Origin: an archaeon GW2011_AR10
Lineage (GTDB): Archaea > Iainarchaeota > Iainarchaeia > Iainarchaeales > GW2011-AR10
Reading direction: 5' to 3'
Length of the DNA stretch: 32,000 nt
Assembly (NCBI GenBank): GCA_000830275.1
Contig: CP010424.1
Coordinates: forward strand, 690,001 to 722,000
The notes under the pieces are model-generated. The model saw only the letters and a program-made list of their open reading frames with translations. It was not told where the DNA came from and made no database searches. The translations under genes and the position numbers were made by a program. Below are positions 7,800-17,063 of this stretch, one piece after another. Numbering within the stretch: position 1 is the stretch's first letter; every line of letters begins with the position of its first letter.

Positions 7800-8177
7800 A
7801 TGCTTTTTACTATCCTGTTAAGCCTCACGGAAATCTGGAATGATTTCAACCTAATAATCAAAATCTTCGTAGTTATGACCATTTACAGTTGGGTGAGGAA
7901 CCACGTTGAGGGATGGATTGGCTGGGTTGTTTTCGGCATAATAACATTCTTTGTAGTGTTTGACCTGTGGGCCATATTTGGCTCCGTTTATGTGGTTTAC
8001 ATGCTGCTGATGTTCGGCATAAGCCAAGTACTTATTGACTTTTTCTTCATTAGTGCAGGAAGAGGTGGCCACGAAGAAATGGAAAGCCCGGTCAGCAGTG
8101 GAGCTGACTTGGCTGCAAGGCAGCAGCACATTGCTGCAAGGCAAGCTGGAATGATGAAAAGCTTTTTCAAGAGATGA
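7800..8177 (+). CDS. Small polytopic membrane protein (125 aa, ~3 TM), hypothetical
   Basis: ORF starts 31 nt after the giant gene, with a TATA-like box ~24 nt upstream of the ATG. Hydrophobic segments IIKIFVVMTIYSW, WIGWVVFGIITFFVVF and IFGSVYVVYMLLMFGISQVLIDFFFI. Polar tail ends in KSFFKR. Confidence 0.7.
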   Translation: MLFTILLSLTEIWNDFNLIIKIFVVMTIYSWVRNHVEGWIGWVVFGIITFFVVFDLWAIFGSVYVVYMLLMFGISQVLIDFFFISAGRGGHEEMESPVSSGADLAARQQHIAARQAGMMKSFFKR

Positions 8178-8182
8178 GTTAA

Positions 8183-8497
8183 GTGAATGAACGAGGGAAC
8201 CTTCTTCTGATTGTGCTGGCAGCAATGATTTTGCTTGCAATTCTGCCGGTGCTATTAGCACACCTCTTCTGGCCTGTTAAGCTTGTCGCGCAAATTATTT
8301 TCGTGTTTGTCATCTATTCTACTGTGCGAGGGTTCATGGGACCAGGGCACTTAACCATCGTGATTTCAGCAGTACTAATATACTTCATGGTATTCAAATA
8401 CTTTGACATAATGCTTAGCCTTTACATTTTCCAGCTTATGCTTGGAGTGCAGTTCCTCTCGGTAATAATCTGGGGAATTGGCACAAGGATGAGGTGA
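8183..8497 (+). CDS. Small polytopic membrane protein (104 aa), hypothetical; paralog-like to neighbours
   Basis: GTG start 5 nt after the previous stop; the nearby ATG at 8187 is out of frame and terminates quickly. Three to four hydrophobic helices. The motif VIYSTVRGFMGPG resembles TIYSWVRNHVEG in the upstream product. Confidence 0.65.
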   Translation: MNERGNLLLIVLAAMILLAILPVLLAHLFWPVKLVAQIIFVFVIYSTVRGFMGPGHLTIVISAVLIYFMVFKYFDIMLSLYIFQLMLGVQFLSVIIWGIGTRMR

Positions 8498-8576
8498 CAT
8501 TAAACGTGTTGCGGTATTGGAAGTGCGAGGGAAAGGAATTTAAAGCCGGAAACTTAAAATTGTTTAGGATGGGAAT

Positions 8577-8849
8577 ATGATTGGGTTGATTCTGCAGACC
8601 GGCCTGACAGAGAATGTCTGGATTGCGTTAACCTTGTTTGTTTTTGTCTGGCTTTTCAGCTGGGCCAAAACAAATCTTGGTTCGGCAAAGCTTGCGATTC
8701 TTTTCGCGGTAATTGTAGTATACCTTACCTTTTACTCTTACTCTATTCTGATATGGATTGCAGTTGCATTGTTCCTGTTCGCCACTTTTGGCAAGGAGCT
8801 ATTTTCAAGGGTTAACCCATTTGAAGGAAGCAGTGGTGGTTTAAGGTGA
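8577..8849 (+). CDS. Small membrane protein (90 aa), hypothetical
   Basis: ATG preceded by AGGATGGGAAT. Helices WIALTLFVFVWLFSW, LAILFAVIVVYLTFY and ILIWIAVALFLFATF. The motif LFSWAKTNLGS resembles the YSW/YST-(V/A)-(R/K) motif of the two upstream products. Confidence 0.65.
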   Translation: MIGLILQTGLTENVWIALTLFVFVWLFSWAKTNLGSAKLAILFAVIVVYLTFYSYSILIWIAVALFLFATFGKELFSRVNPFEGSSGGLR

Positions 8850-8948
8850 ACTGGAATAAACAGGGTTTTCTCAAAGCCGGAAATCAGAGCAGCACCATGC
8901 AACTGAAAGGGGCATGGCAAATGCAAGCAAACCAGAGCAGTGCCATAC

Positions 8949-8994
8949 GAAACGAAGCAGTGCCATCGAAGATGGCACAGGTCGTAAACGAACC
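8949..8994 (+). repeat. Diverged copy of the hairpin element (stem GTGCCATC / GATGGCAC, loop GAA)
   Basis: GAAACGAAGCAGTGCCATCGAAGATGGCACAGGTCGTAAACGAACC parallels the 9039 and 15089 units (GAAACGAGCCAGTGGCATCGCAGATGCCACACCTCGTAAAC). Compensatory changes keep an 8-bp stem with a 3-nt loop (8960..8978). Confidence 0.5.
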
Positions 8995-9038
8995 TTTTCG
9001 TTTTGGCACGCCTTGCAAACGGAGGTAACAGTTTTTTG

Positions 9039-9098
9039 CGAGTGAAACGAGCCAGTGGCATCGCAGATGCCACACCTCGTAAACTGAGGTAACAGTTT
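9039..9098 (+). promoter_or_regulatory. ~60-nt hairpin-containing leader element ending at the start codon of the 9099 gene
   Basis: CGAGTGAAACGAGCCAGTGGCATCGCAGATGCCACACCTCGTAAACTGAGGTAACAGTTT|ATGGAT. Perfect hairpin GTGGCATC-GCA-GATGCCAC at 9055..9073. GAGGT lies 8 nt before the ATG. Confidence 0.6.
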
Positions 9099-9413
9099 AT
9101 GGATACGTTCAATTTTCTTGTGTCAATTCTTCTCATAATAATTGCAATACAATACCAGCAGAACTGGATTGTTTTCGCAATCCTGATTATTTCGATTCTT
9201 TCAACTAGATCGCTTTCAACTGCAATAACCCTTATTATTTCAACTATTGTGGTGTATGCAGTTCTTGGTTCGGGCGACATTTCGAGCTTGTTCCCTGTTG
9301 TTGTGTTCGGCTTAATCATTTTTGCGTTGGTTCTTGGCTTGGCTGAAAAGCCAAAACAGCCAGAATATTATCCCCCTGACCCCGGCTACGGTGAAATGCT
9401 TGGCGGCGGCTGA
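9099..9413 (+). CDS. Small membrane protein (104 aa), hypothetical
   Basis: ATG preceded by GAGGT 8 nt upstream, within the hairpin repeat element. Three hydrophobic helices. Pro/Tyr-rich tail KPKQPEYYPPDPGYGEMLGGG. Confidence 0.65.
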   Translation: MDTFNFLVSILLIIIAIQYQQNWIVFAILIISILSTRSLSTAITLIISTIVVYAVLGSGDISSLFPVVVFGLIIFALVLGLAEKPKQPEYYPPDPGYGEMLGGG

Positions 9414-9429
9414 TAAAACCGATTCAGCA

Positions 9430-9783
9430 TTGGTTGTGCTGGTATTAGTGCTGATTCTAGTGTTTGTGAAACTGGACGAAATGCTGCTTGCATTGTTGGC
9501 TGCCTTTATGCTGGTGCTGCTTTTATTTGTAAGGGCTTTTGGCGCTTTTACTGGAAGCGCTTCTGCAGTTGGAAAGGTCATTGGAGAGGAAGCAGGAAGG
9601 GAATACGGGGACATTGAAAAAGCAAAGGGAACTTTTCCCTCAGGAGAAGAGCTTTCCAGCATAGCGGGGGAACAGGCAAGGGCTTTTGGGGGAAAAGAAA
9701 AACTTTCAGGCAGCACCATGGAGAAATTCTCGAAGGGCGCCGAACGCTTTGTGAAAAAAGCAAAAAAATTTTTTCAGAAATAG
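9430..9783 (+). CDS. Small membrane protein with a charged C-terminal tail, hypothetical (start uncertain)
   Basis: The track ORF 9322..9783 overlaps the previous gene by 92 nt in another frame. In-frame TTG 9430, GTG 9436 and ATG 9481 lie just after that gene's stop. The product has two hydrophobic helices (VVLVLVLILVFV, LLALLAAFMLVLLLFVRAFGAF) and a Lys-rich tail ending KKFFQK. Confidence 0.5.
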   Translation: MVVLVLVLILVFVKLDEMLLALLAAFMLVLLLFVRAFGAFTGSASAVGKVIGEEAGREYGDIEKAKGTFPSGEELSSIAGEQARAFGGKEKLSGSTMEKFSKGAERFVKKAKKFFQK

Positions 9784-9796
9784 TGTTTCTGGCAGC

Positions 9797-10381
9797 CTAC
9801 TTTTCAAGGGAGTTCAGGATGTCGCGGTTTGTTGAAATCACTTTCTTCAAAAGCGACTGAACTGCTTCGTTTCCTGCCTTTAAATCAGCTAGCTCCCTTT
9901 CAAACTCTGAAAGCTTTTTCTCTATCTGCTTGAGTTTTGAGTCATCCCCGGATTCAGATGCAGGCATTGACTCAACTTTGGAGTGAATTGCTTCCATCCG
10001 CTGTTTGAGCTCATCAAGCTTGCTGCTCTGCTCTTCAAGCGCAGTATGAGTTGTTGTGTGTCCAAGCTCGTGGCTTTCCCTGAAATTGTTAAGGTGCTCT
10101 TTGATTGTTGCAGCAATGCTTCCAACATTTCCTTCATGCTTTTCTTCAGCGAAACCTTCTTCCCCTGCTTCCAAATCATCTTCGGATGCCCCTGATTCTT
10201 CTTCTGCACCGTATTCTTTTGTGCCCTCTGCTGGTTTTTTTCCTTTCGCTTCCGCCAAATACTGTTCCACTTCCTTGTCGTTGAACCCAATGTCCTTAAG
10301 TGTAGACCTAATGGTTTCATCATCGACTCCTGATTCAAGCATTTTCCTGATAGTGTCCATGACAATTTGCTTGCTTACCAT
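9797..10381 (-). CDS. Acidic coiled-coil protein, hypothetical
   Basis: The track starts at GTG 10408, but a TATATAAA box (10416-10423, minus sense TTTATATA) is only ~12 nt upstream of that GTG. ATG 10381 (MVSKQIVMDTIRKML...) lies ~39 nt downstream of the box and is preferred. The product has a small helical N-domain, a Glu-rich linker and heptad-like C-terminal helices. Confidence 0.6.
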   Translation of the reverse strand: MVSKQIVMDTIRKMLESGVDDETIRSTLKDIGFNDKEVEQYLAEAKGKKPAEGTKEYGAEEESGASEDDLEAGEEGFAEEKHEGNVGSIAATIKEHLNNFRESHELGHTTTHTALEEQSSKLDELKQRMEAIHSKVESMPASESGDDSKLKQIEKKLSEFERELADLKAGNEAVQSLLKKVISTNRDILNSLEK

Positions 10382-10536
10382 CAAACCACTTCTTCTATAA
10401 TATTGCACTGGGGGGTATATAAATACTTAACAACCATATAAAATCTTCCCTTAGACAGTGATGGCCCTGCGTTGGTTAATTGCAAAATAATAAATATGGT
10501 TTAGGTTATATGATTATAGATCTCTGAGTGAATTGA

Positions 10537-12027
10537 ATGGAAATTTTCAAGTTAAGCGACGGCCCGTGGAAAAAGCTGTTTGAGGGAGCATTTGAAGAGA
10601 ACGAAGTAAACATTTATTCAAACCCTAAAAGCATTATTCTTGTCCTCATTTTTGAGAAGGAATCAGGCAAGACCTCAGGCGTTGTAGTAGAGATGTTCAA
10701 GGTGTTCTTTTCAGTCGGCGAAGTGGAGGGCTTTGTCGAAACGCTGCCAAGAGAAATCATTCTCCTAACAAAGCACGATGAAAAAGAAACCCTGAAATTT
10801 CTTGTTCTCGGGTCAAGGCCATCCTACATAAAGTGGGAGGAACAGCAGTTTATGGCAGAAACCGATACAATGCTGAAGCGCCTTAAGACATCTTCAACAC
10901 TGATAAAGGATGTTTCAAAGGCATACGATCTTACGCTGCAGGAGCTCAGCGAAGCACATGAATCAGCGCAAAAAGCTTTTTTCACCCAGCCTCTTTTGGT
11001 GCCGCTGCTTTCAACCAGCTCGCATGAAACCGAGTCAGGCATAGCCGGGATTGCCAAAGGAGAAATCATTTTCGGCTTAACCAAAAAACAGGAACAGGTG
11101 CTGGAGCCGATTAATTTGTTCAATAAAACAATTATTTTTGGAGGCAGAGAACATGACAGAAGGCACGTGCTGAAAGTAATAGCTGAAAGCGCGCTGCTTT
11201 CAAGCATTCCAGTGGTGGTTCTTGACTGGAACAACGTGTTCAAGAGCCTAAACGACGCATCAAAGGACTTGGACGGGCTGAAGAAATACAAGGTGGGCAT
11301 CGATCCAATAGGTTTCCCTGTAAAAATCCTTAAGCCAGTTGAAGAAATAAAGGTTGACTTGAACTGCACTAACGCTAAAGGCTTGGCTGAAGTGTTCGGC
11401 ATCGGCGACAACATTATAACAAAAATAATTGTTGACACGCTCCGCGACAACAGGGTTTCAGGCATCAGTGAATTGATTGAAAAGGTTAAGGCAACAACGC
11501 CGGGAGAAGAGCCAAACATTTACGAGCTGAACAAAGCAGTGAGGATTCTTTCGCTGATAAGCCAGCGCTATCCCGGCCTATTTGAAGGAAAAAACGATTA
11601 CGCCAACATTGTTGCAGGCACTGGCAAGTCGATTGGAAGAGCAGCCATTATTGATTTGAGCGGAGTTGACGATAGAGTAAAGCTTTTAGTGGGGCACAAC
11701 ATTTTTAACGGCCTGCTGAAGCAGTTTAAGGGAAAAGATAAAACAGGGAAGCCACCGGTGCTTATCGTGCCGCATGCAAAAATTTTTGTCGGAGCTGAAA
11801 AAGCATCAGTTATCTCAGCCGAGTCAATAATTGTGATAAGCGAACTTGGAAAGATTGGCGTTGGCTATGCGCTGGAAGAAGAAAACGCGCTTGACATCGC
11901 CAAAGAAGTGGCGAACTCAACTGAAGCAAAAATCACTATCATCAAAGAAAATGACATTAGCGTTCAACTGAAGGGAAGACAAAGCTACAGGGTTTTCGTG
12001 AGGCCAACCCTCAGCAGAGCCTCATAA
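10537..12027 (+). CDS. HerA/DUF87 (FtsK-HerA superfamily)-like protein with degenerate Walker A and Walker B motifs
   Basis: 496-aa ORF with AT-rich TATA-like sequence upstream. Its layout matches my memory of DUF87/HerA proteins. GEIIFGLTKKQEQVLEPINLFNKTIIFGGREHDRRHVLKVI occupies the place of ...G..v.l....l..H..I.G.TGSGKS. GRAAIIDLSG matches the IDLS motif. PPVLIVPHAKIFV occupies the place of llv(I/L)EEAH.f. No GK(S/T) P-loop occurs anywhere in the protein. The family call is pattern recognition, not a search. Confidence 0.6.
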   Translation: MEIFKLSDGPWKKLFEGAFEENEVNIYSNPKSIILVLIFEKESGKTSGVVVEMFKVFFSVGEVEGFVETLPREIILLTKHDEKETLKFLVLGSRPSYIKWEEQQFMAETDTMLKRLKTSSTLIKDVSKAYDLTLQELSEAHESAQKAFFTQPLLVPLLSTSSHETESGIAGIAKGEIIFGLTKKQEQVLEPINLFNKTIIFGGREHDRRHVLKVIAESALLSSIPVVVLDWNNVFKSLNDASKDLDGLKKYKVGIDPIGFPVKILKPVEEIKVDLNCTNAKGLAEVFGIGDNIITKIIVDTLRDNRVSGISELIEKVKATTPGEEPNIYELNKAVRILSLISQRYPGLFEGKNDYANIVAGTGKSIGRAAIIDLSGVDDRVKLLVGHNIFNGLLKQFKGKDKTGKPPVLIVPHAKIFVGAEKASVISAESIIVISELGKIGVGYALEEENALDIAKEVANSTEAKITIIKENDISVQLKGRQSYRVFVRPTLSRAS

Positions 12028-12507
12028 TCATTTCCTTCTTTTTCCCTTAAGCTTGTTTTCAATCAGTTTTTCTAAGTCGCCCCTTGTAACGAATTCAAGC
12101 GGGTTAATTGCGTCAATCACGTACTTTATTTCCTTGAGCTCTTCCTGCTTGGCAAACTTGTCATTCATTTCAAGAATGGCGGACTGCATTTCTGAGAGAA
12201 GCTCTGACTGCTTTGAAACAACCGAATTGAGGTTTGCGAGCTCGTTCCTGATTGAGCCAACTTCCCCTGAAGGGGTTACACCGCCTTGCAAGCCGCCTGA
12301 TTCGAGGCCTTTAAGCTTCTTGTTTAATACTAGCAGGTTTCTTCCCAAAATTTTCTCGTTTCTTACCACGTACTTCATTTTTTGGGAGAGCACAAGAATG
12401 CTAGAGTTAAGGGCGCGGATGTCTGAGTTTATTTTTGAAAGAATCTCGGTCGCCCTAGAAGGCACACCTTTTTTTGCCCTTCTATCGTCCCTTTCAACTC
12501 TTGACAT
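12028..12507 (-). CDS. Coiled-coil protein, hypothetical
   Basis: 159-aa ORF whose stop codon directly abuts the stop of the convergent 10537..12027 gene. Basic N-terminus (MSRVERDDRRAKK) followed by long heptad-like helices. TATA-like TTTAATTAAAC ~35 nt upstream on the minus strand. Confidence 0.65.
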   Translation of the reverse strand: MSRVERDDRRAKKGVPSRATEILSKINSDIRALNSSILVLSQKMKYVVRNEKILGRNLLVLNKKLKGLESGGLQGGVTPSGEVGSIRNELANLNSVVSKQSELLSEMQSAILEMNDKFAKQEELKEIKYVIDAINPLEFVTRGDLEKLIENKLKGKRRK

Positions 12508-12618
12508 ACTTCAAGCCTCTATTCGCCTGCAACACGTTTAATTAAACAAAATCACTTAAATAATGACCATTTAAAGTAAAAAAGGTTTTCTTTGGCAGGA
12601 AAGACACCAAACCAAGAC

Positions 12619-12652: not shown

Positions 12653-15076
12653 ATGGCTAAAGCGGTTAAGAAAGGCACTCTATTGGATGTAAGCTACTTT
12701 TTGGATGACGAAAAAGGCATTGCCTTAAATCTTTTCGTGAAAACCCAGAAAGGAATAGAGGAATTCTCGGAGAAAAAGTTCAAGCCATACTTTTACGTTG
12801 TTACAGATGACGCAAAAAAAAGGCTGCGTGAACTGGAAAAAAAGGAGTTTGGAGAAGAAAAAATAAAGCCCATGAAAGTGGAGGAAGTAAAAAAGTCAAA
12901 CGAGGAAAACGTGCTGAAGTTGAGCTTCAAAAACACGCACGAGCTTATAACTGCGAGGGAATCAATAGAAGAAATGCAGGGAGTTAAAGAGAAACGGGAG
13001 TACGATATCCCGTTTGCAAAGCGTTTCCTCATTGACCAAAGCATTGAGCCAATGAATGGCCTGGAGCTTGAAGTCAACGAAAAAAACGAAGTGCAAAAAC
13101 TCCGAGTATACAACACCAAGAAAGATTTATTGGATGAGCTCAGCGTTGCGTGCTTTGACATTGAAACCTATTCTCCTGGAAGGTTCAGTGACCCCTCCAG
13201 GGACCCAATAGTTTCAATCGCTTTAAGTTCTGGCGGAAAAGAAAAAGCGTTTGTGTGGAGGCAGAAACCAGAAAAAGAAAAAGCAGATTTTTTTGAAACG
13301 GAAAAAGAAATGCTTGAAGCATTTCTCAACGAAATGGCAAAATCAAAGCCAGACATTATTGTTACTTACAATGGAGACATGTTTGATTTTCCTTACATTA
13401 AGGAAAGAGCCAGAGTACTGAAGGTTGATTTGAAGAAAGGCTTTGGCTCCGAGCCAGACGTTAGAAGGAAAGGTCTTCAGAATGCAGTGAAGCTGAAAGG
13501 AATCCAGCACGTTGACGCATATCAGATAGTGAGACTGATGACAAGGTTTGGCACAGTCAGCCTTGTCAAGTTTGACTTGGAGTCTGTAAGCTTCGAATTG
13601 TTCGGCAAAGAAAAGGAAAAAATGACCCCTGAACAAATAAACAAGGCTTGGAGCACTGGAACAAACATTGATGCGCTGCTGCAGTACAACAAAGAGGACG
13701 CAAAAACTACACTCAGGATTGCTGAGACATTCCTTCCATTGTTTTTTGAGTTCTCAAAGCTCGTGCACCAGACACTGTTTGATTCAACGAGGAGCTCTGC
13801 TGGACAGCTCGTGGAAGATCTGCTGATAGAGAAATCGTTTGAAAACAACGCGCTGATTCCAAACAAGCCGCAAGAAGGAGTTGTAACGCAGAGGCTGCTG
13901 CAGAGCTTTAAGGGAGGGTATGTCAAGGAGCCTGTTGCAGGGCTGCATGAAAACATTGCAGTGCTTGACTTCCGGAGCCTTCACCCAAGCATAATGATTT
14001 CCCACAATGTTTCGCCTGAAACCCTCAAGTGCGAGCACGCCTCATGCAGGAACGGGAAAAACCTTTCGCCTGACAAGGACTGGTTCTGCGAAAAAAAGAG
14101 GGGTTTCATTCCAACAATTATAGAGGAAATCCTGAACAAGAGAATTGAAATTAAAAACGAAATGAAGAAATTTAAGGAGGGCACGCCTGAATTTGAAAGC
14201 CTTAAGGCAAGGCAGCATGCCCTGAAAATAGTTCTGAATTCGCATTACGGTTACCTTGGTTATGCTAGGAGCAGGTGGTATAGCAGGGAAAGCGCAAGGG
14301 CAGTTACTGCTTGGAGCAGGCACTACATAAGGGAGAGCATTCACAAGGCGGAAAAGGCAGGCTTTAACCCGATTTATAGTGACACTGACAGCCTATTCAT
14401 AATCGTTCCAAAAGGCAAAACCGAAAAAGACGTTAACGCGTTCGTGAAAAAAATAAACAGCGAACTGCCCGGAGCAATGGAACTAGAGTTTGAAGGCTAC
14501 TACAAGCGAGGTATTTTCGTAACCAAAAAAGAGGGCGGGGCAGCAAAAAAAAGGTACGCGCTGGTTGACTTCAAGGACAGCCTAAAAATTGTTGGCTTTG
14601 AGTATGTTAGGAGGGACTGGGCAAGGATTGCAAAGGAAACCCAAAAAGAAGTGATTGAAGCAGTGCTGAAGGAAGGCAAACCAGAAAAAGCAGTTGAAAT
14701 CGTGAAAAAAATAGTTGAGAGGCTGAAGAAGGGGGAAGTAACAAAAAAAGAGCTGATAATTATGACGCAGATAAGAAGGCCCCTGAACAAGTATGAAAAC
14801 ATTGGCCCGCACGTTGCTGCTGCACAAAAAGCAGTCAAGAGAGGAAAAGAGGTTGGCGTTGGGTCAACGATTTCCTTCATAATTACGAAGTCTGGGAAAA
14901 GCATAAGCGACAAAGCAGAACTAGAAGAATTCGTTAAAGAAGGAAACTATGATGCCGACTATTACATTAATCACCAGGTTTTGCCGGCAATAATCAAGAT
15001 ACTGGCCGAGCTAGGCTACAGCGAAGAGGACCTAATCCAGGGAGGAAAACAGCAGAGCTTAAGCTCATTCATGTAA
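12653..15076 (+). CDS. polB: Family B DNA polymerase (archaeal PolB)
   Basis: 807 aa, collinear by eye with Pyrococcus/Thermococcus PolB. Exo I FDIETYS; Exo II IIVTYNGDMFDFPY; Exo III YNKEDAKTT. Motif A LDFRSLHPSIMISHNVSPETL; motif B KIVLNSHYGYLGYARSRWY; motif C IYSDTDSLF. Also KKRYA, VRRDW and YYINHQVLPA. No intein. Confidence 0.97.
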   Translation: MAKAVKKGTLLDVSYFLDDEKGIALNLFVKTQKGIEEFSEKKFKPYFYVVTDDAKKRLRELEKKEFGEEKIKPMKVEEVKKSNEENVLKLSFKNTHELITARESIEEMQGVKEKREYDIPFAKRFLIDQSIEPMNGLELEVNEKNEVQKLRVYNTKKDLLDELSVACFDIETYSPGRFSDPSRDPIVSIALSSGGKEKAFVWRQKPEKEKADFFETEKEMLEAFLNEMAKSKPDIIVTYNGDMFDFPYIKERARVLKVDLKKGFGSEPDVRRKGLQNAVKLKGIQHVDAYQIVRLMTRFGTVSLVKFDLESVSFELFGKEKEKMTPEQINKAWSTGTNIDALLQYNKEDAKTTLRIAETFLPLFFEFSKLVHQTLFDSTRSSAGQLVEDLLIEKSFENNALIPNKPQEGVVTQRLLQSFKGGYVKEPVAGLHENIAVLDFRSLHPSIMISHNVSPETLKCEHASCRNGKNLSPDKDWFCEKKRGFIPTIIEEILNKRIEIKNEMKKFKEGTPEFESLKARQHALKIVLNSHYGYLGYARSRWYSRESARAVTAWSRHYIRESIHKAEKAGFNPIYSDTDSLFIIVPKGKTEKDVNAFVKKINSELPGAMELEFEGYYKRGIFVTKKEGGAAKKRYALVDFKDSLKIVGFEYVRRDWARIAKETQKEVIEAVLKEGKPEKAVEIVKKIVERLKKGEVTKKELIIMTQIRRPLNKYENIGPHVAAAQKAVKRGKEVGVGSTISFIITKSGKSISDKAELEEFVKEGNYDADYYINHQVLPAIIKILAELGYSEEDLIQGGKQQSLSSFM

Positions 15077-15088
15077 AGAAAAGATAAT

Positions 15089-15149
15089 GCGAACGAAGCG
15101 AGCAAGTGGCATCGCAGATGCCACACGTTGCAAACAGAGGTGTCGGTTT
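15089..15149 (+). promoter_or_regulatory. Second copy of the ~60-nt hairpin leader element, ending at the map start codon
   Basis: GCGAACGAAGCGAGCAAGTGGCATCGCAGATGCCACACGTTGCAAACAGAGGTGTCGGTTT|ATGGAT. The 22-mer AGTGGCATCGCAGATGCCACAC (15105..15126) is identical to 9054..9075. The GAGGT-N8-ATGGAT arrangement is the same. Confidence 0.6.
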
Positions 15150-16046
15150 ATGGATTCAGAAGAATACAAAAAATATGTGAAAGCAGGAAAAATTCTTCAG
15201 CAGGCAAAAAAGGAAGCAAAAAAGCTTGCAAGGCCAGGCAAAAAAATGCTTGAACTGGCTGAATCGATTGAGGCATTCATAGAGGAAAACAGTGGAAAAC
15301 CTGCTTTTCCGGTTAACCTTTCAGCCAACAACTGCGCTGCACACTTTACTCCATCAGAAAACGATGAACGCACTGTCAAAGAAAATGATGTGCTGAAAAT
15401 CGATGTTGGCGTGCATGTTGACGGCTTCATTGCTGACTCTGCTGTGACAATTGACTTCTCAGGAGAGCACGGCAAGATGGTTGAAGCAGCAGAGCAGGCG
15501 CTTGAAAACGCTTTAAGTGTTGTGAAAGTAGGGGCTACTGTAGGAAAAATTGGAGAGGAAATAGAGAGAACAATCAAAAAAGCAGGGTTCAATCCTGTCC
15601 AAAACCTCACCGGCCACGGATTGGAAGAGTATATTGCACATGCTGCGCCGCCAATTCCAAACATTTCAAGGCACGATGACCGAAAGCTTGAAGACGGCAA
15701 AGCATATGCTATTGAGCCGTTTGCCACCAACGGACGCGGCTTCGTAAGGGAAAGCGTTCAAGCGGAAATCTTTGGCTTGGATAAAGCGATTCCTGTTAGA
15801 AACACTAACGCAAGAAAGATATTGGAGTTCGTGCAAAAAGAATACAGGGAACTGCCTTTTGCTGAAAGGTGGGTTTCAGAAAAGTTGAAGCTGAGCGAGT
15901 TTGCAAGAAAAGTGGCGCTAAGAGAGCTACTGCAGAAAAAAGCAATTCACGCTTACCCGATGCTGAATGAGGAAGAAGGCAGGATTGTAACGCAGGCAGA
16001 GACAACGATTTTTTTAAAGGATGGCAAGATGGAAAAGCTGGTGTAA
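15150..16046 (+). CDS. map: Methionine aminopeptidase, type 2 (archaeal)
   Basis: MDSEEYKKYVKAGKI...KPAFPVNLSANNCAAHFTP...LKIDVGVHVDGFIADSAVT...NLTGHGL...YAIEPFAT...QAETTI is collinear with P. furiosus MetAP (MDTEKLMKAGEI...). Start moved from 15087 to ATG 15150: the upstream 63 nt belong to a non-coding repeat element, and GAGGT lies 8 nt before ATG 15150. Confidence 0.93.
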   Translation: MDSEEYKKYVKAGKILQQAKKEAKKLARPGKKMLELAESIEAFIEENSGKPAFPVNLSANNCAAHFTPSENDERTVKENDVLKIDVGVHVDGFIADSAVTIDFSGEHGKMVEAAEQALENALSVVKVGATVGKIGEEIERTIKKAGFNPVQNLTGHGLEEYIAHAAPPIPNISRHDDRKLEDGKAYAIEPFATNGRGFVRESVQAEIFGLDKAIPVRNTNARKILEFVQKEYRELPFAERWVSEKLKLSEFARKVALRELLQKKAIHAYPMLNEEEGRIVTQAETTIFLKDGKMEKLV

Positions 16047-17063
16047 ATGGAATTTAAGCCAAAATTTGTTGCATGGTTTTTTCTCGTAATGCTTTCTGTT
16101 CTGGTGTGGGCGTTTTTCCTAAATGCCTCCGGCCTTGGCCTAACTGAAGCAATTAATATCGCCAACTTTGAGGAAACGCTTAGAAAAATAATGTCACTGG
16201 AGTTCTTACTGCTTGTTCTGGTTTTTCCAATCACATATTCTCTTGTGGTGGTGATGGCGAAAGCAGAGGGAAGAATCGCAACTTACATTATAACATTTCT
16301 TTCATTGATTTTTGCAGGCATGCTGTCCCTTGCACTTTTCCCTAAACTGTTGGAGTTTTTGGCGCTTGGAATGCTTTACATTATTTCATTCTTTCTCGTA
16401 ATAGAGATTGCAATGCTTAAATTCCAGGAACTGAAGGCATTTGTAATGGTTAGAAGCGCCGGCGACAGCATTGGCAAAAGCATTACTGTTTTAGGCATTG
16501 GCTTGTTCGTTCTAATCTCTTTCACCGTGCTGGCAAACCAGGAGGAATTCGTCAAAGGATTTGAGGACAAGGTATTCTCTCTTGCGGCAGGCGACAGCAG
16601 CGAAATGAATTTGGAGGGCTTGAGCGCTGACCTCATAGCAGGAACACAGCTTCAAACCATACAGCAAATAAAAGGAATGCAGCAATACCAGCCATTAACA
16701 GGAAAAGATGATGTGGAAGTGCAAACGTTCTTACTCGCAATTAACGAACTAGAAGAAGTGGTTGGAAGCCAGCAGTACAGGGAACAGTTGAAAGAAAACA
16801 TCAGAAGGGAATCTGGAAACAGTCAACCTGCAGAGCGCTTCAGATCAACTTTTGAAACAATAAAGAGCCAAATACCGTTTTTTGTTTTGATTGAAAAGTA
16901 TTTCTGGCTGATAACGGCCATCTCTTTCACTTCAATTTTCTTTTTGGTTGGAGGCATCATTATTAAGCCGCTTGGAATGCTTTATGCTGGGCTATTTGAC
17001 CTTGTTTTGAGCCTGATTAGCCCAAAAGTTACTGCACAACAAAAACTTAGAGAAGCTGAGTGA
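16047..17063 (+). CDS. Polytopic membrane protein, hypothetical
   Basis: The ATG immediately follows the map stop (GTGTAAATGG), suggesting co-transcription polB-map-this gene. About 6 hydrophobic helices flank a ~120 aa soluble Gln/Glu-rich insert. Confidence 0.75.
   Translation: MEFKPKFVAWFFLVMLSVLVWAFFLNASGLGLTEAINIANFEETLRKIMSLEFLLLVLVFPITYSLVVVMAKAEGRIATYIITFLSLIFAGMLSLALFPKLLEFLALGMLYIISFFLVIEIAMLKFQELKAFVMVRSAGDSIGKSITVLGIGLFVLISFTVLANQEEFVKGFEDKVFSLAAGDSSEMNLEGLSADLIAGTQLQTIQQIKGMQQYQPLTGKDDVEVQTFLLAINELEEVVGSQQYREQLKENIRRESGNSQPAERFRSTFETIKSQIPFFVLIEKYFWLITAISFTSIFFLVGGIIIKPLGMLYAGLFDLVLSLISPKVTAQQKLREAE

Follow-up and report, generated by a model that had tools for sequence, protein, structure and literature searches.

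A stand-alone HerA-like protein without catalytic motifs is a probable pseudo-ATPase conserved across Iainarchaeota

We describe here a protein of 496 residues, P0001, encoded in a 32,000-nucleotide stretch (the window) of the genome of the Iainarchaeota archaeon GW2011_AR10 (GenBank assembly GCA_000830275.1, contig CP010424.1, positions 690,001 to 722,000). Our analysis makes it fairly probable that this stand-alone protein is a pseudo-ATPase, a member of the HerA clade within the FtsK-HerA superfamily that acts in an oligomeric platform with membrane partners. Genomes are tiny in Iainarchaeota and related DPANN archaea (about 1.2 Mb here), which are poorly understood and mostly uncultured. 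Pseudo-ATPase domains were known before in type VII secretion ATPases; our searches gave no account of a stand-alone family of this kind that is a near-universal core gene of an archaeal phylum.

Fold of P0001

The open reading frame (ORF) and the motif strings quoted in the original prediction, which had proposed a HerA/DUF87-like protein, are all present: IIFGGREHDRRHVLKVI at residues 199-215, GRAAIIDLSG at 367-376 and VLIVPHAKIFV at 408-418. The match to Pfam DUF87 (PF01935) was marginal (24.3 bits vs a cut-off of 23.2) and covered residues 212-387, which correspond to positions 40-214 of the profile, downstream of its Walker A. No NCBIfam match was obtained, and a phmmer search against the PDB sequences found nothing. 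The AlphaFold2 model of the full-length protein, built with 34 homologs as input, was confident (predicted local distance difference test, pLDDT, 84.9; predicted template modeling score, pTM, 0.78). With this model, the top 50 Foldseek matches in the PDB were all HerA or HerA-like, with a best E of 5.6e-14 (9x1m). VIA aligned it to Sulfolobus solfataricus HerA 4D2I (4d2i_B) with a Z of 24.9 and a root mean square deviation of 3.3 Å over 285 residues, to VirB4 (4ag5) with a Z of 22.2, to DndH-C with a Z of 21.8 and to TrwB/FtsK with a Z of about 16. All the VIA superfamily matches span residues 174-496 of the model, and the structural look-alikes of P0001 in the Atlas were all DUF87/HerA_C. As modeled, residues 174-496 are unambiguously a HerA-type ATPase fold. 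Hydropathy analysis gave a single hydrophobic window, residues 211-229, and a membrane helix is unlikely because in the model these residues are helix alpha1. P0001 is a soluble protein that stands alone, without a second ATPase domain.

The HerA-like architecture originally suggested for the whole protein holds for residues 174-496 and does not seem to extend to the N-terminal domain, for which neither Foldseek nor VIA listed a HAS-barrel. Residues 1-173, modeled separately (pLDDT 86.8, pTM 0.82), form seven strands followed by a 27-residue helix and carry a conserved G-P-W at residues 9-11. Foldseek found nothing with E < 1e-3 for this domain in the PDB, the best match being 3cxj (E 0.03, probability 0.97). 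A VIA search against representatives gave Z values of 6.6-7.9 over 100-113 residues at about 3 Å for DR_1245, the AvrPphF chaperone, AmyR/YbjN, STM2138, VecA, SicP, SchA, ExsC and 3cxj, and the YbjN/type III secretion chaperone fold class made up most of the top 20 matches. The model therefore suggests an N-terminal domain like the YbjN/type III secretion system (T3SS) chaperone fold. The Pfam HAS-barrel model (PF09378) had no match in P0001 at E <= 0.1, and no HAS-barrel chain was among the Foldseek and VIA matches listed for the domain, an absence from a list that falls short of proof. The overall architecture is considered unlike that of HerA because a HAS-barrel was found neither among the structure matches nor by the Pfam model.

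Loss of the catalytic motifs

The motif register was fixed in three ways, by hmmsearch of the family profile against 4D2I and by two hhalign comparisons, one with the HerA of the same genome and one in which the profile of 158 family representatives was aligned globally to that of 26 canonical HerAs from Iainarchaeota. The global alignment (Prob 97.8%, E 4e-12) was gapless through the P-loop. Together with the Pfam DUF87 match, these comparisons upheld the positions first proposed for the P-loop, the IDLS strand and Walker B. The Walker A of HerA, M-S-G-A-G-K-S, falls on G203-R-E-H-D207-R208-R209, with D207 at the position of the last Gly, R208 at that of the lysine and R209 at that of the Ser/Thr. 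Walker B, V-I-E-E-A-H in HerA, reads I-V-P412-H413-A-K, and the S-Q-R-P of the arginine finger reads E-E-N450-A; no Arg is conserved in columns 447-451 of the 158 family members. The 'DphGEY' strand (IVVMDPHGEY in HerA) aligns with VVVLDWNNVF, and the 'DLS' strand (GKLTVVDLSE) with GRAAIIDLSG. On this alignment P0001 is without Walker A, both Walker B acids and the SQRP arginine finger, so that the loss first noticed for the two Walker motifs is confirmed and extends to a third element.

DSSP assigned a strand to residues 197-202 of the model, a loop to 203-204 and a helix to 205-221, all with pLDDT > 90. Helix alpha1 is predicted to begin at E205, three residues ahead of the Lys-equivalent R208. 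As the strand ends at G202 and the helix starts at E205, the P-loop is predicted to have turned into an extra helical turn. The same sequence logic (GGREHDR) and a predicted helix extension of the same kind as in the 'DUF' domain of EccC5, discussed below, make it very probable that P0001 is catalytically inert.

It had also been claimed that no GK(S/T) occurs anywhere in the protein. The wording was wrong, since GKT is found at residues 44-46 (ESGKTSG) and GKS at 363-365 (AGTGKSIG), but its substance stands, as neither provides a functional Walker A. In the model the first is part of a beta-hairpin turn in the N-terminal domain and the second of a loop ahead of a strand; neither has the strand-loop-helix setting of a P-loop. 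GK[ST] is scattered over 58 of the 158 members, at 0.44 occurrences per protein compared with 0.32 expected from composition. Being unconserved in homologs, of the wrong topology and at chance frequency, both sites were ruled out as a hidden P-loop, and a K-x-K-G-K-[ST] before the Walker B strand in 15 of the 158 members was rejected on the same three grounds.

Conservation and distribution of the family

A word-indexed search with P0001 retrieved 36 homologs, and an exhaustive HMMER search of 1.84 billion representatives retrieved 216, with 188 below 1e-10. Nearly all are about 480-520 aa long and align end to end, with identities down to about 22%; the range within the family is 22-55%. By its Atlas clusters and the source names of its representatives, the family belongs to Candidatus Iainarchaeota/Diapherotrites. 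The genome that encodes P0001 is one contig of 1.24 Mb and 99.9% complete. The family profile matched 146 of the 151 sampled Iainarchaeota genomes, usually once per genome, including all 55 with a completeness of at least 90%, and 61 of the 62 genera were represented. A distant clade comes from genomes labeled Candidatus Micrarchaeota, where 7 of the 101 sampled genomes of this second GTDB phylum carry the gene. Because it is kept in 146 of 151 tiny genomes, this 500-residue protein is likely to be important to cell biology.

The loss of the P-loop is lineage-wide, as a canonical GxxxxGK[ST] was found at the P-loop column in none (0/158) of the full-length representatives, whose consensus there is G-G-x-E-x-[DE]-R-x-[HRK]. 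The family has strongly conserved positions of its own, namely E217 and G180 (100%), R336 and R489 (99%), R485 (96%), R208 and D230 (83%), and a P-x-G-F-P motif at 257-261. One could argue that P0001 is a decaying paralog or a mis-called ORF without a function of its own, since the disappearance of all catalytic motifs is what would be expected of a dying ATPase gene. However, the gene is full length in the 146 genomes, a single in-frame stop was seen in each of only two Iainarchaeota matches, the fold is confidently modeled, and the family keeps its own motifs (GPW, PxGFP, E217, R336, R485, R489). We regard this explanation as refuted by the conservation and give it practically no weight. The P0001 family is under purifying selection.

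Walker B is more variable than Walker A. Column 412 is P in 94 members, E in 30 and D in 10, and column 413 is E in 43, N in 22, K in 22, D in 17 and Q in 15. Near relatives mostly read hhhh-P-[DE]-A and the distant clade hhhh-F-E-x-D-A; P0001 has neither acid. The nucleotide site might then have been remodeled rather than lost, with R208, E217, D230 and one Walker B acid binding a nucleotide or a phosphorylated ligand in a ligand-gated switch or a slow NTPase. The conservation of R208, E217 and D230 fits such a proposal, as do the E/D found at column 412 in 40 of the 158 members and at column 413 in 60, and the change from K to R at the Walker A lysine retains the positive charge. However, the Mg-binding Ser/Thr and all three anion-hole glycines of the P-loop are replaced, an acidic residue directly precedes R208, and P0001 itself has neither Walker B acid nor the arginine finger. 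The modeled helix would moreover fill the phosphate site, as in EccC5-DUF, which does not bind ATP. We therefore consider a remodeled site unlikely, and an inert protein the better account of P0001.

Genomic neighborhood

We explored the neighborhood of the gene at 20 diverse loci from Iainarchaeota, where the identity of the HerA-like protein to P0001 goes down to 24% (Table 1). The gene is preceded by a divergent gene for a coiled-coil protein, P0183, whose conserved parts are a helical N-terminal domain of about 45 aa and an amphipathic C-terminal helix, with a variable acidic low-complexity linker between them. Pfam and PDB searches with P0183 yielded generic coiled-coil matches only. We consider it a candidate partner or adaptor of P0001. 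Further upstream lie four small ORFs (7800-9413) with 2-3 hydrophobic helices each by hydropathy and no Pfam family. The 125-, 104- and 90-aa proteins (7800-8849) look paralogous, as each profile cross-matches the same ORFs of the second phylum; the ORF at 9099 belongs to a second family. After the first hydrophobic run the 125-, 104- and 90-aa proteins of 7800-8849 share an aromatic motif, FSWAK, YSTVR or YSWVR here and YKWAQ or YNWAQ in the second phylum. No polytopic protein is encoded in the conserved block 7800-12027, a region in which no search was aimed at VirB6/CedA-like proteins; the nearby polytopic ORF 16047-17063 is present in only 4 of the 20 loci.

Table 1. Features of P0001, its neighbors and the intact DUF87 paralogs. 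Positions are those of the window unless a genome contig (G000:C1) or locus (L049, L050) is named; locus counts refer to the 20 Iainarchaeota loci.
Feature	Position	Strand	Basis or remarks
P0001, Walker-less HerA-like protein, 496 aa	10537-12027	+	ATG-started ORF and translation; homologs about 500 aa
P0001 N-terminal domain, residues 1-173	10537-11055	+	Separate model; probably YbjN/T3SS-chaperone-like fold
P0001 HerA/FtsK-type RecA-like domain with helical insertion, residues 174-496, catalytically degenerate	11056-12024	+	VIA, Foldseek, Atlas
Degenerate Walker A, G202-G-R-E-H-D-R208-R-H210	11140-11166	+	Gapless hhalign, DSSP
Degenerate Walker B, V408-L-I-V-P412-H413-A-K415	11758-11781	+	Aligned to HerA L-L-V-I-E-E-A-H
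S-Q-R-P arginine-finger position, reads E447-E-E-N450-A	11875-11889	+	hhalign, column counts
P0183, coiled-coil, 203 aa	9797-10408	-	Directly upstream, divergent; 18/20 loci by tblastn, 20/20 by profile
P0182, 159 aa	12028-12507	-	Directly downstream; 17/20 loci
PolB	12653-15076	+	Downstream; 16/20 loci
MetAP	15087-16046	+	Downstream; 12/20 loci
Small membrane ORF, 90 aa	8577-8849	+	Upstream; 20/20 loci
Small membrane ORF, 104 aa	8183-8497	+	Upstream; 13/20 loci
Small membrane ORF, 125 aa	7800-8177	+	Upstream; 12/20 loci
Small membrane ORF, second family, 104 aa, about 3 transmembrane helices, Gly-rich C-terminal tail	9099-9413	+	Upstream; 12/20 loci
Giant ORF, 2249 aa	1019-7768	+	Upstream, within 7 kb of the HerA-like gene; 12/20 loci
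Canonical HerA, 512 aa (MSGAGKS, VIEEAH, SQRP)			Directly downstream of NurA (PF09376)
DUF87 ATPase, 431 aa (GKRGSGKS, MIDEAH)	G000:C1:112984-114947 region (L050:2985-4280)	-	Intact paralog
P0184, DUF87/HerA_C, 951 aa (GARGSGKS, FIDEAH, ATQQPS)	G000:C1:413368-416223 (L049:1369-4224)	+	Intact paralog

The position of P0001 next to surface-protein genes had been offered as an argument for its function, and this did not hold up. The giant ORF has a hydrophobic segment at its N-terminus (33-71) and a hydrophobic hairpin in its interior (about 1482-1524). It lies near the gene in 12 of the 20 Iainarchaeota loci and in no locus examined from the second phylum, which makes the giant surface protein weak as a core partner, whereas P0183 and the small membrane genes are robustly linked. 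A further plus-strand ORF (2-991) stands beside the giant one. The minus-strand ORFs 8738-9319 and 9312-9719 are unconserved (2/20 and 0/20 loci), and the genes there are taken to be the plus-strand ORFs instead. The plus-strand ORF 12053-12541 (162 aa) is found in 13 of the 20 loci but is weaker than P0182 on the opposite strand and was dismissed as a shadow ORF.

The linkage extends to the second phylum. A P0183 homolog (E 7e-15 to 2e-12) is adjacent and divergent in 3 of 6 loci (G237, G207, G197), and upstream of the HerA-like gene there are small membrane ORFs, some of the 9099 family (E 3e-11 to 3e-8) and some of the 7800/8183/8577 superfamily (E 8e-8 to 3e-3). Among the 101 genomes, strong matches to the P0183 family (E <= 1.4e-8) were found in exactly the 7 that carry the HerA-like gene, and strong matches to the 9099 family (E <= 4e-11) in 6 of those 7 and in 0 of the 94 others. 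In the seventh, the HerA-like gene is at a contig edge. The other genomes of this phylum gave only weak partner-family matches, in long unrelated frames. This co-retention of the HerA-like gene, P0183 and the 9099 family supports a functional module.

P0182, in contrast, was ruled out as a partner of P0001, as it travels with the gene for the family-B DNA polymerase (PolB). Its homolog was found in two second-phylum loci (L061:13639-14058 and L059:13434-13934; profile E about 1e-30), in L061 directly by PolB (from 14130) with the HerA-like gene about 5 kb off, and for this reason we assign P0182 to PolB rather than to the HerA-like gene. It is a coiled-coil protein with basic N- and C-termini, forms a divergent pair with PolB, and is a candidate PolB-associated factor. 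In the Atlas, its family occurs in Iainarchaeota clusters only. Pfam and PDB searches returned generic coiled-coil matches only, and the nearest named Atlas cluster, FlaC_arch, scored 0.81, which is chance level.

Intact DUF87 paralogs

The source genome does hold intact relatives of P0001, as a search for paralogs suggested by the original prediction found three further DUF87 proteins whose motifs are all canonical, among them the HerA that adjoins NurA (Table 1). NurA is encoded at G000:C1:1065285-1066382, beside the canonical HerA and not beside P0001, and a Rad50 zinc-hook protein is encoded a few kb away. Canonical HerA was found in 60 of 61 genomes at 49-69% identity; P0001, whose identities are 24-55%, is an additional paralog that evolves faster. 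Since the intact HerA adjoins NurA and has Rad50 nearby, the HerA-NurA role in end resection would be covered by the active enzyme.

This bears on the proposal that P0001 is an accessory to DNA transactions, either a passive ring or a poison or regulatory subunit working with the HerA-NurA resection machine or with the downstream PolB. The nearest fold relatives are DNA translocases, PolB lies downstream in most of the Iainarchaeota loci, and the conserved R336, R485 and R489 (96-99%) could contact nucleic acid. However, HerA, NurA and Rad50 are unlinked to P0001 and about 366 kb away, and in the second phylum PolB is either missing from the locus or about 5 kb off, accompanied by P0182, a conserved partner of its own. 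The consistently linked genes encode membrane proteins and P0183, and the N-terminal domain looks unlike the HAS-barrel of HerA. On balance, a role in DNA transactions seems quite improbable, and the membrane proteins and P0183 are preferred as partners.

Several other features of the paralogs were observed. A 159-aa coiled-coil ORF (L050:4469-4948, minus strand) lies immediately upstream of the 431-aa ATPase gene on the same strand, echoing the coiled-coil genes around the Walker-less paralog. In P0184, about 120 aa at the N-terminus are highly acidic, and a TrmB-like winged helix is weakly matched at 800-854. In about a dozen Iainarchaeota genomes the canonical HerA gene is interrupted in frame, with the pieces of the 512-aa protein lying in single open frames of 750-1700 aa (for example G048:C10:23619-28703, G025:C6:89087-91171, G026:C37:1-3564, G053:C16:42212-44758 and G031:C1:2030-5065). 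The breaks fall near residues ~170-184 (at Walker A or after it), near ~377-381 and near ~419-439, and the interruptions look like one to two inteins per gene.

A platform without ATPase activity

In the model that we favor, P0001 has kept the RecA-like core and the HerA-type helical insertion while its nucleotide site was dismantled. The glycine-rich P-loop has become G-x-E-x-[DE]-R, a predicted N-terminal extension of helix alpha1, and the Mg-binding Ser/Thr, both Walker B acids (in P0001) and the trans-acting arginine finger have gone. As selection kept the protein as a core gene, it would have to act through its shape, most likely as an oligomeric, possibly HerA-like, ring platform, whose chaperone-like N-terminal domain may be a module that binds partner polypeptides. 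The best-supported candidates for a physical interaction are the divergently encoded P0183 and the small membrane proteins with 2-3 transmembrane helices, in what would be an assembly associated with the membrane and restricted to Iainarchaeota and a subset of the second DPANN phylum. We lean slightly towards such a platform, in which P0001 would work with P0183 and the small membrane proteins. The pseudo-ATPase first proposed is thus supported by the motif loss and by the retention of the gene in nearly all genomes; that it serves as a scaffold or regulator is still what we infer.

Some observations weigh against this model. In two second-phylum genomes (G151, G152) the HerA-like gene lies amid housekeeping genes (proteasome beta, aCPSF1-like) and away from the partners, although the P0183 and 9099-family genes are still present there, about 1 kb apart, on another contig. 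The seven positive genomes of that phylum may be one clade, and the co-occurrence would then reflect one or two evolutionary events. The fold of the N-terminal domain was assigned at Z < 8. Finally, that P0001 neither binds nor hydrolyzes ATP is most likely, as read from its sequence and the AlphaFold2 model; one Walker B acid is kept by many members, and these acids together with R208 may allow some of them residual binding of nucleotide or phosphate.

A more specific and rather doubtful version would make a Walker-less HerA ring, P0183 and the proteins with 2-3 transmembrane helices a new membrane apparatus, with P0001 as a passive docking or portal platform carrying a chaperone-like substrate-binding domain. 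The energy might come from another DUF87 ATPase or not be needed at all, with a logic comparable to that of Ced or the type IV secretion system (T4SS), or of type VII secretion (T7SS). The linkage to small membrane proteins and a coiled-coil protein does point to a lineage-specific envelope or membrane machine, which is relevant to how the mostly uncultured DPANN archaea build their surface or interact with other cells. In the literature and the family libraries, we found no description of a stand-alone HerA-fold family without all catalytic motifs, nor of such a family fused to a chaperone-like domain, nor of one that is core to a DPANN phylum and linked to a conserved set of tiny membrane proteins.

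Comparison with known systems

HerA is a bipolar DNA helicase-translocase of archaea and bacteria. P0001 and HerA are both about 500 aa long, and the RecA-like core, the HerA-type helical insertion, the 'vvfD' and 'iiDLS' strands and the C-terminal strands align. P0001 differs in being without Walker A, the Walker B acids and the SQRP finger, in an N-terminal domain that does not resemble a HAS-barrel, and in having no NurA partner. The N-terminal 130 residues superpose at about 3 Å on YbjN/T3SS chaperone proteins (DR_1245, 4H5B; AvrPphF chaperone, 1S28; AmyR, 5FR7; MTH protein, 3CXJ). However, with identities of only 8-14%, Z values no higher than 7.9 and a Foldseek E of 0.03 at best, common descent is unproven, and the searches made turned up no case in which this fold is fused to a HerA-type domain.

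The Ced/Ted DNA-import systems combine a HerA/VirB4-like ATPase (CedB/TedB) with CedA1/A2, which have two transmembrane helices (CedA1 being like the pilin VirB2), and CedA, which has 6-7 and is the counterpart of VirB6 (PMC9905601). As in Ced, Ted and T4SS, a protein of HerA/VirB4 fold is encoded here with several small proteins of 2-3 transmembrane helices. Unlike in those systems, the ATPase motifs of P0001 are lost, a coiled-coil adaptor-like protein is part of the module instead, and the small proteins have no similarity to any Pfam pilin family. Ced/Ted is in our view a looser analogy than EccC5-DUF.

Degenerate 'DUF' and D2/D3 domains are known in the EccC/EssC ATPases of T7SS (PMC11154593). 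EccC5's 'DUF' domain, from mycobacterial type VII secretion, has an FtsK/HerA-type fold in which GEREQVL, its degenerate Walker A, is shaped into an extended alpha1 helix that would collide with the nucleotide. It is without the catalytic Glu and the Arg finger, did not bind ATP by isothermal titration calorimetry or differential scanning fluorimetry, and is thought to be a structural element of the ring (PMC11154593). By analogy this domain is the best experimental counterpart of P0001. The two share the superfamily fold, the level to which homology could be traced, as well as similar motifs (GEREQVL vs GGREHDR), the alpha1 extension (predicted in P0001) and the disappearance of the catalytic Glu and Arg finger. 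EccC-DUF is, however, one domain of a membrane-anchored multi-domain protein with an active D1 ATPase, whereas P0001 stands alone with an N-terminal domain of its own. The P0001 family would thus be a second case from nature in which a RecA-like ATPase was made into a structural protein by turning its P-loop into helix.

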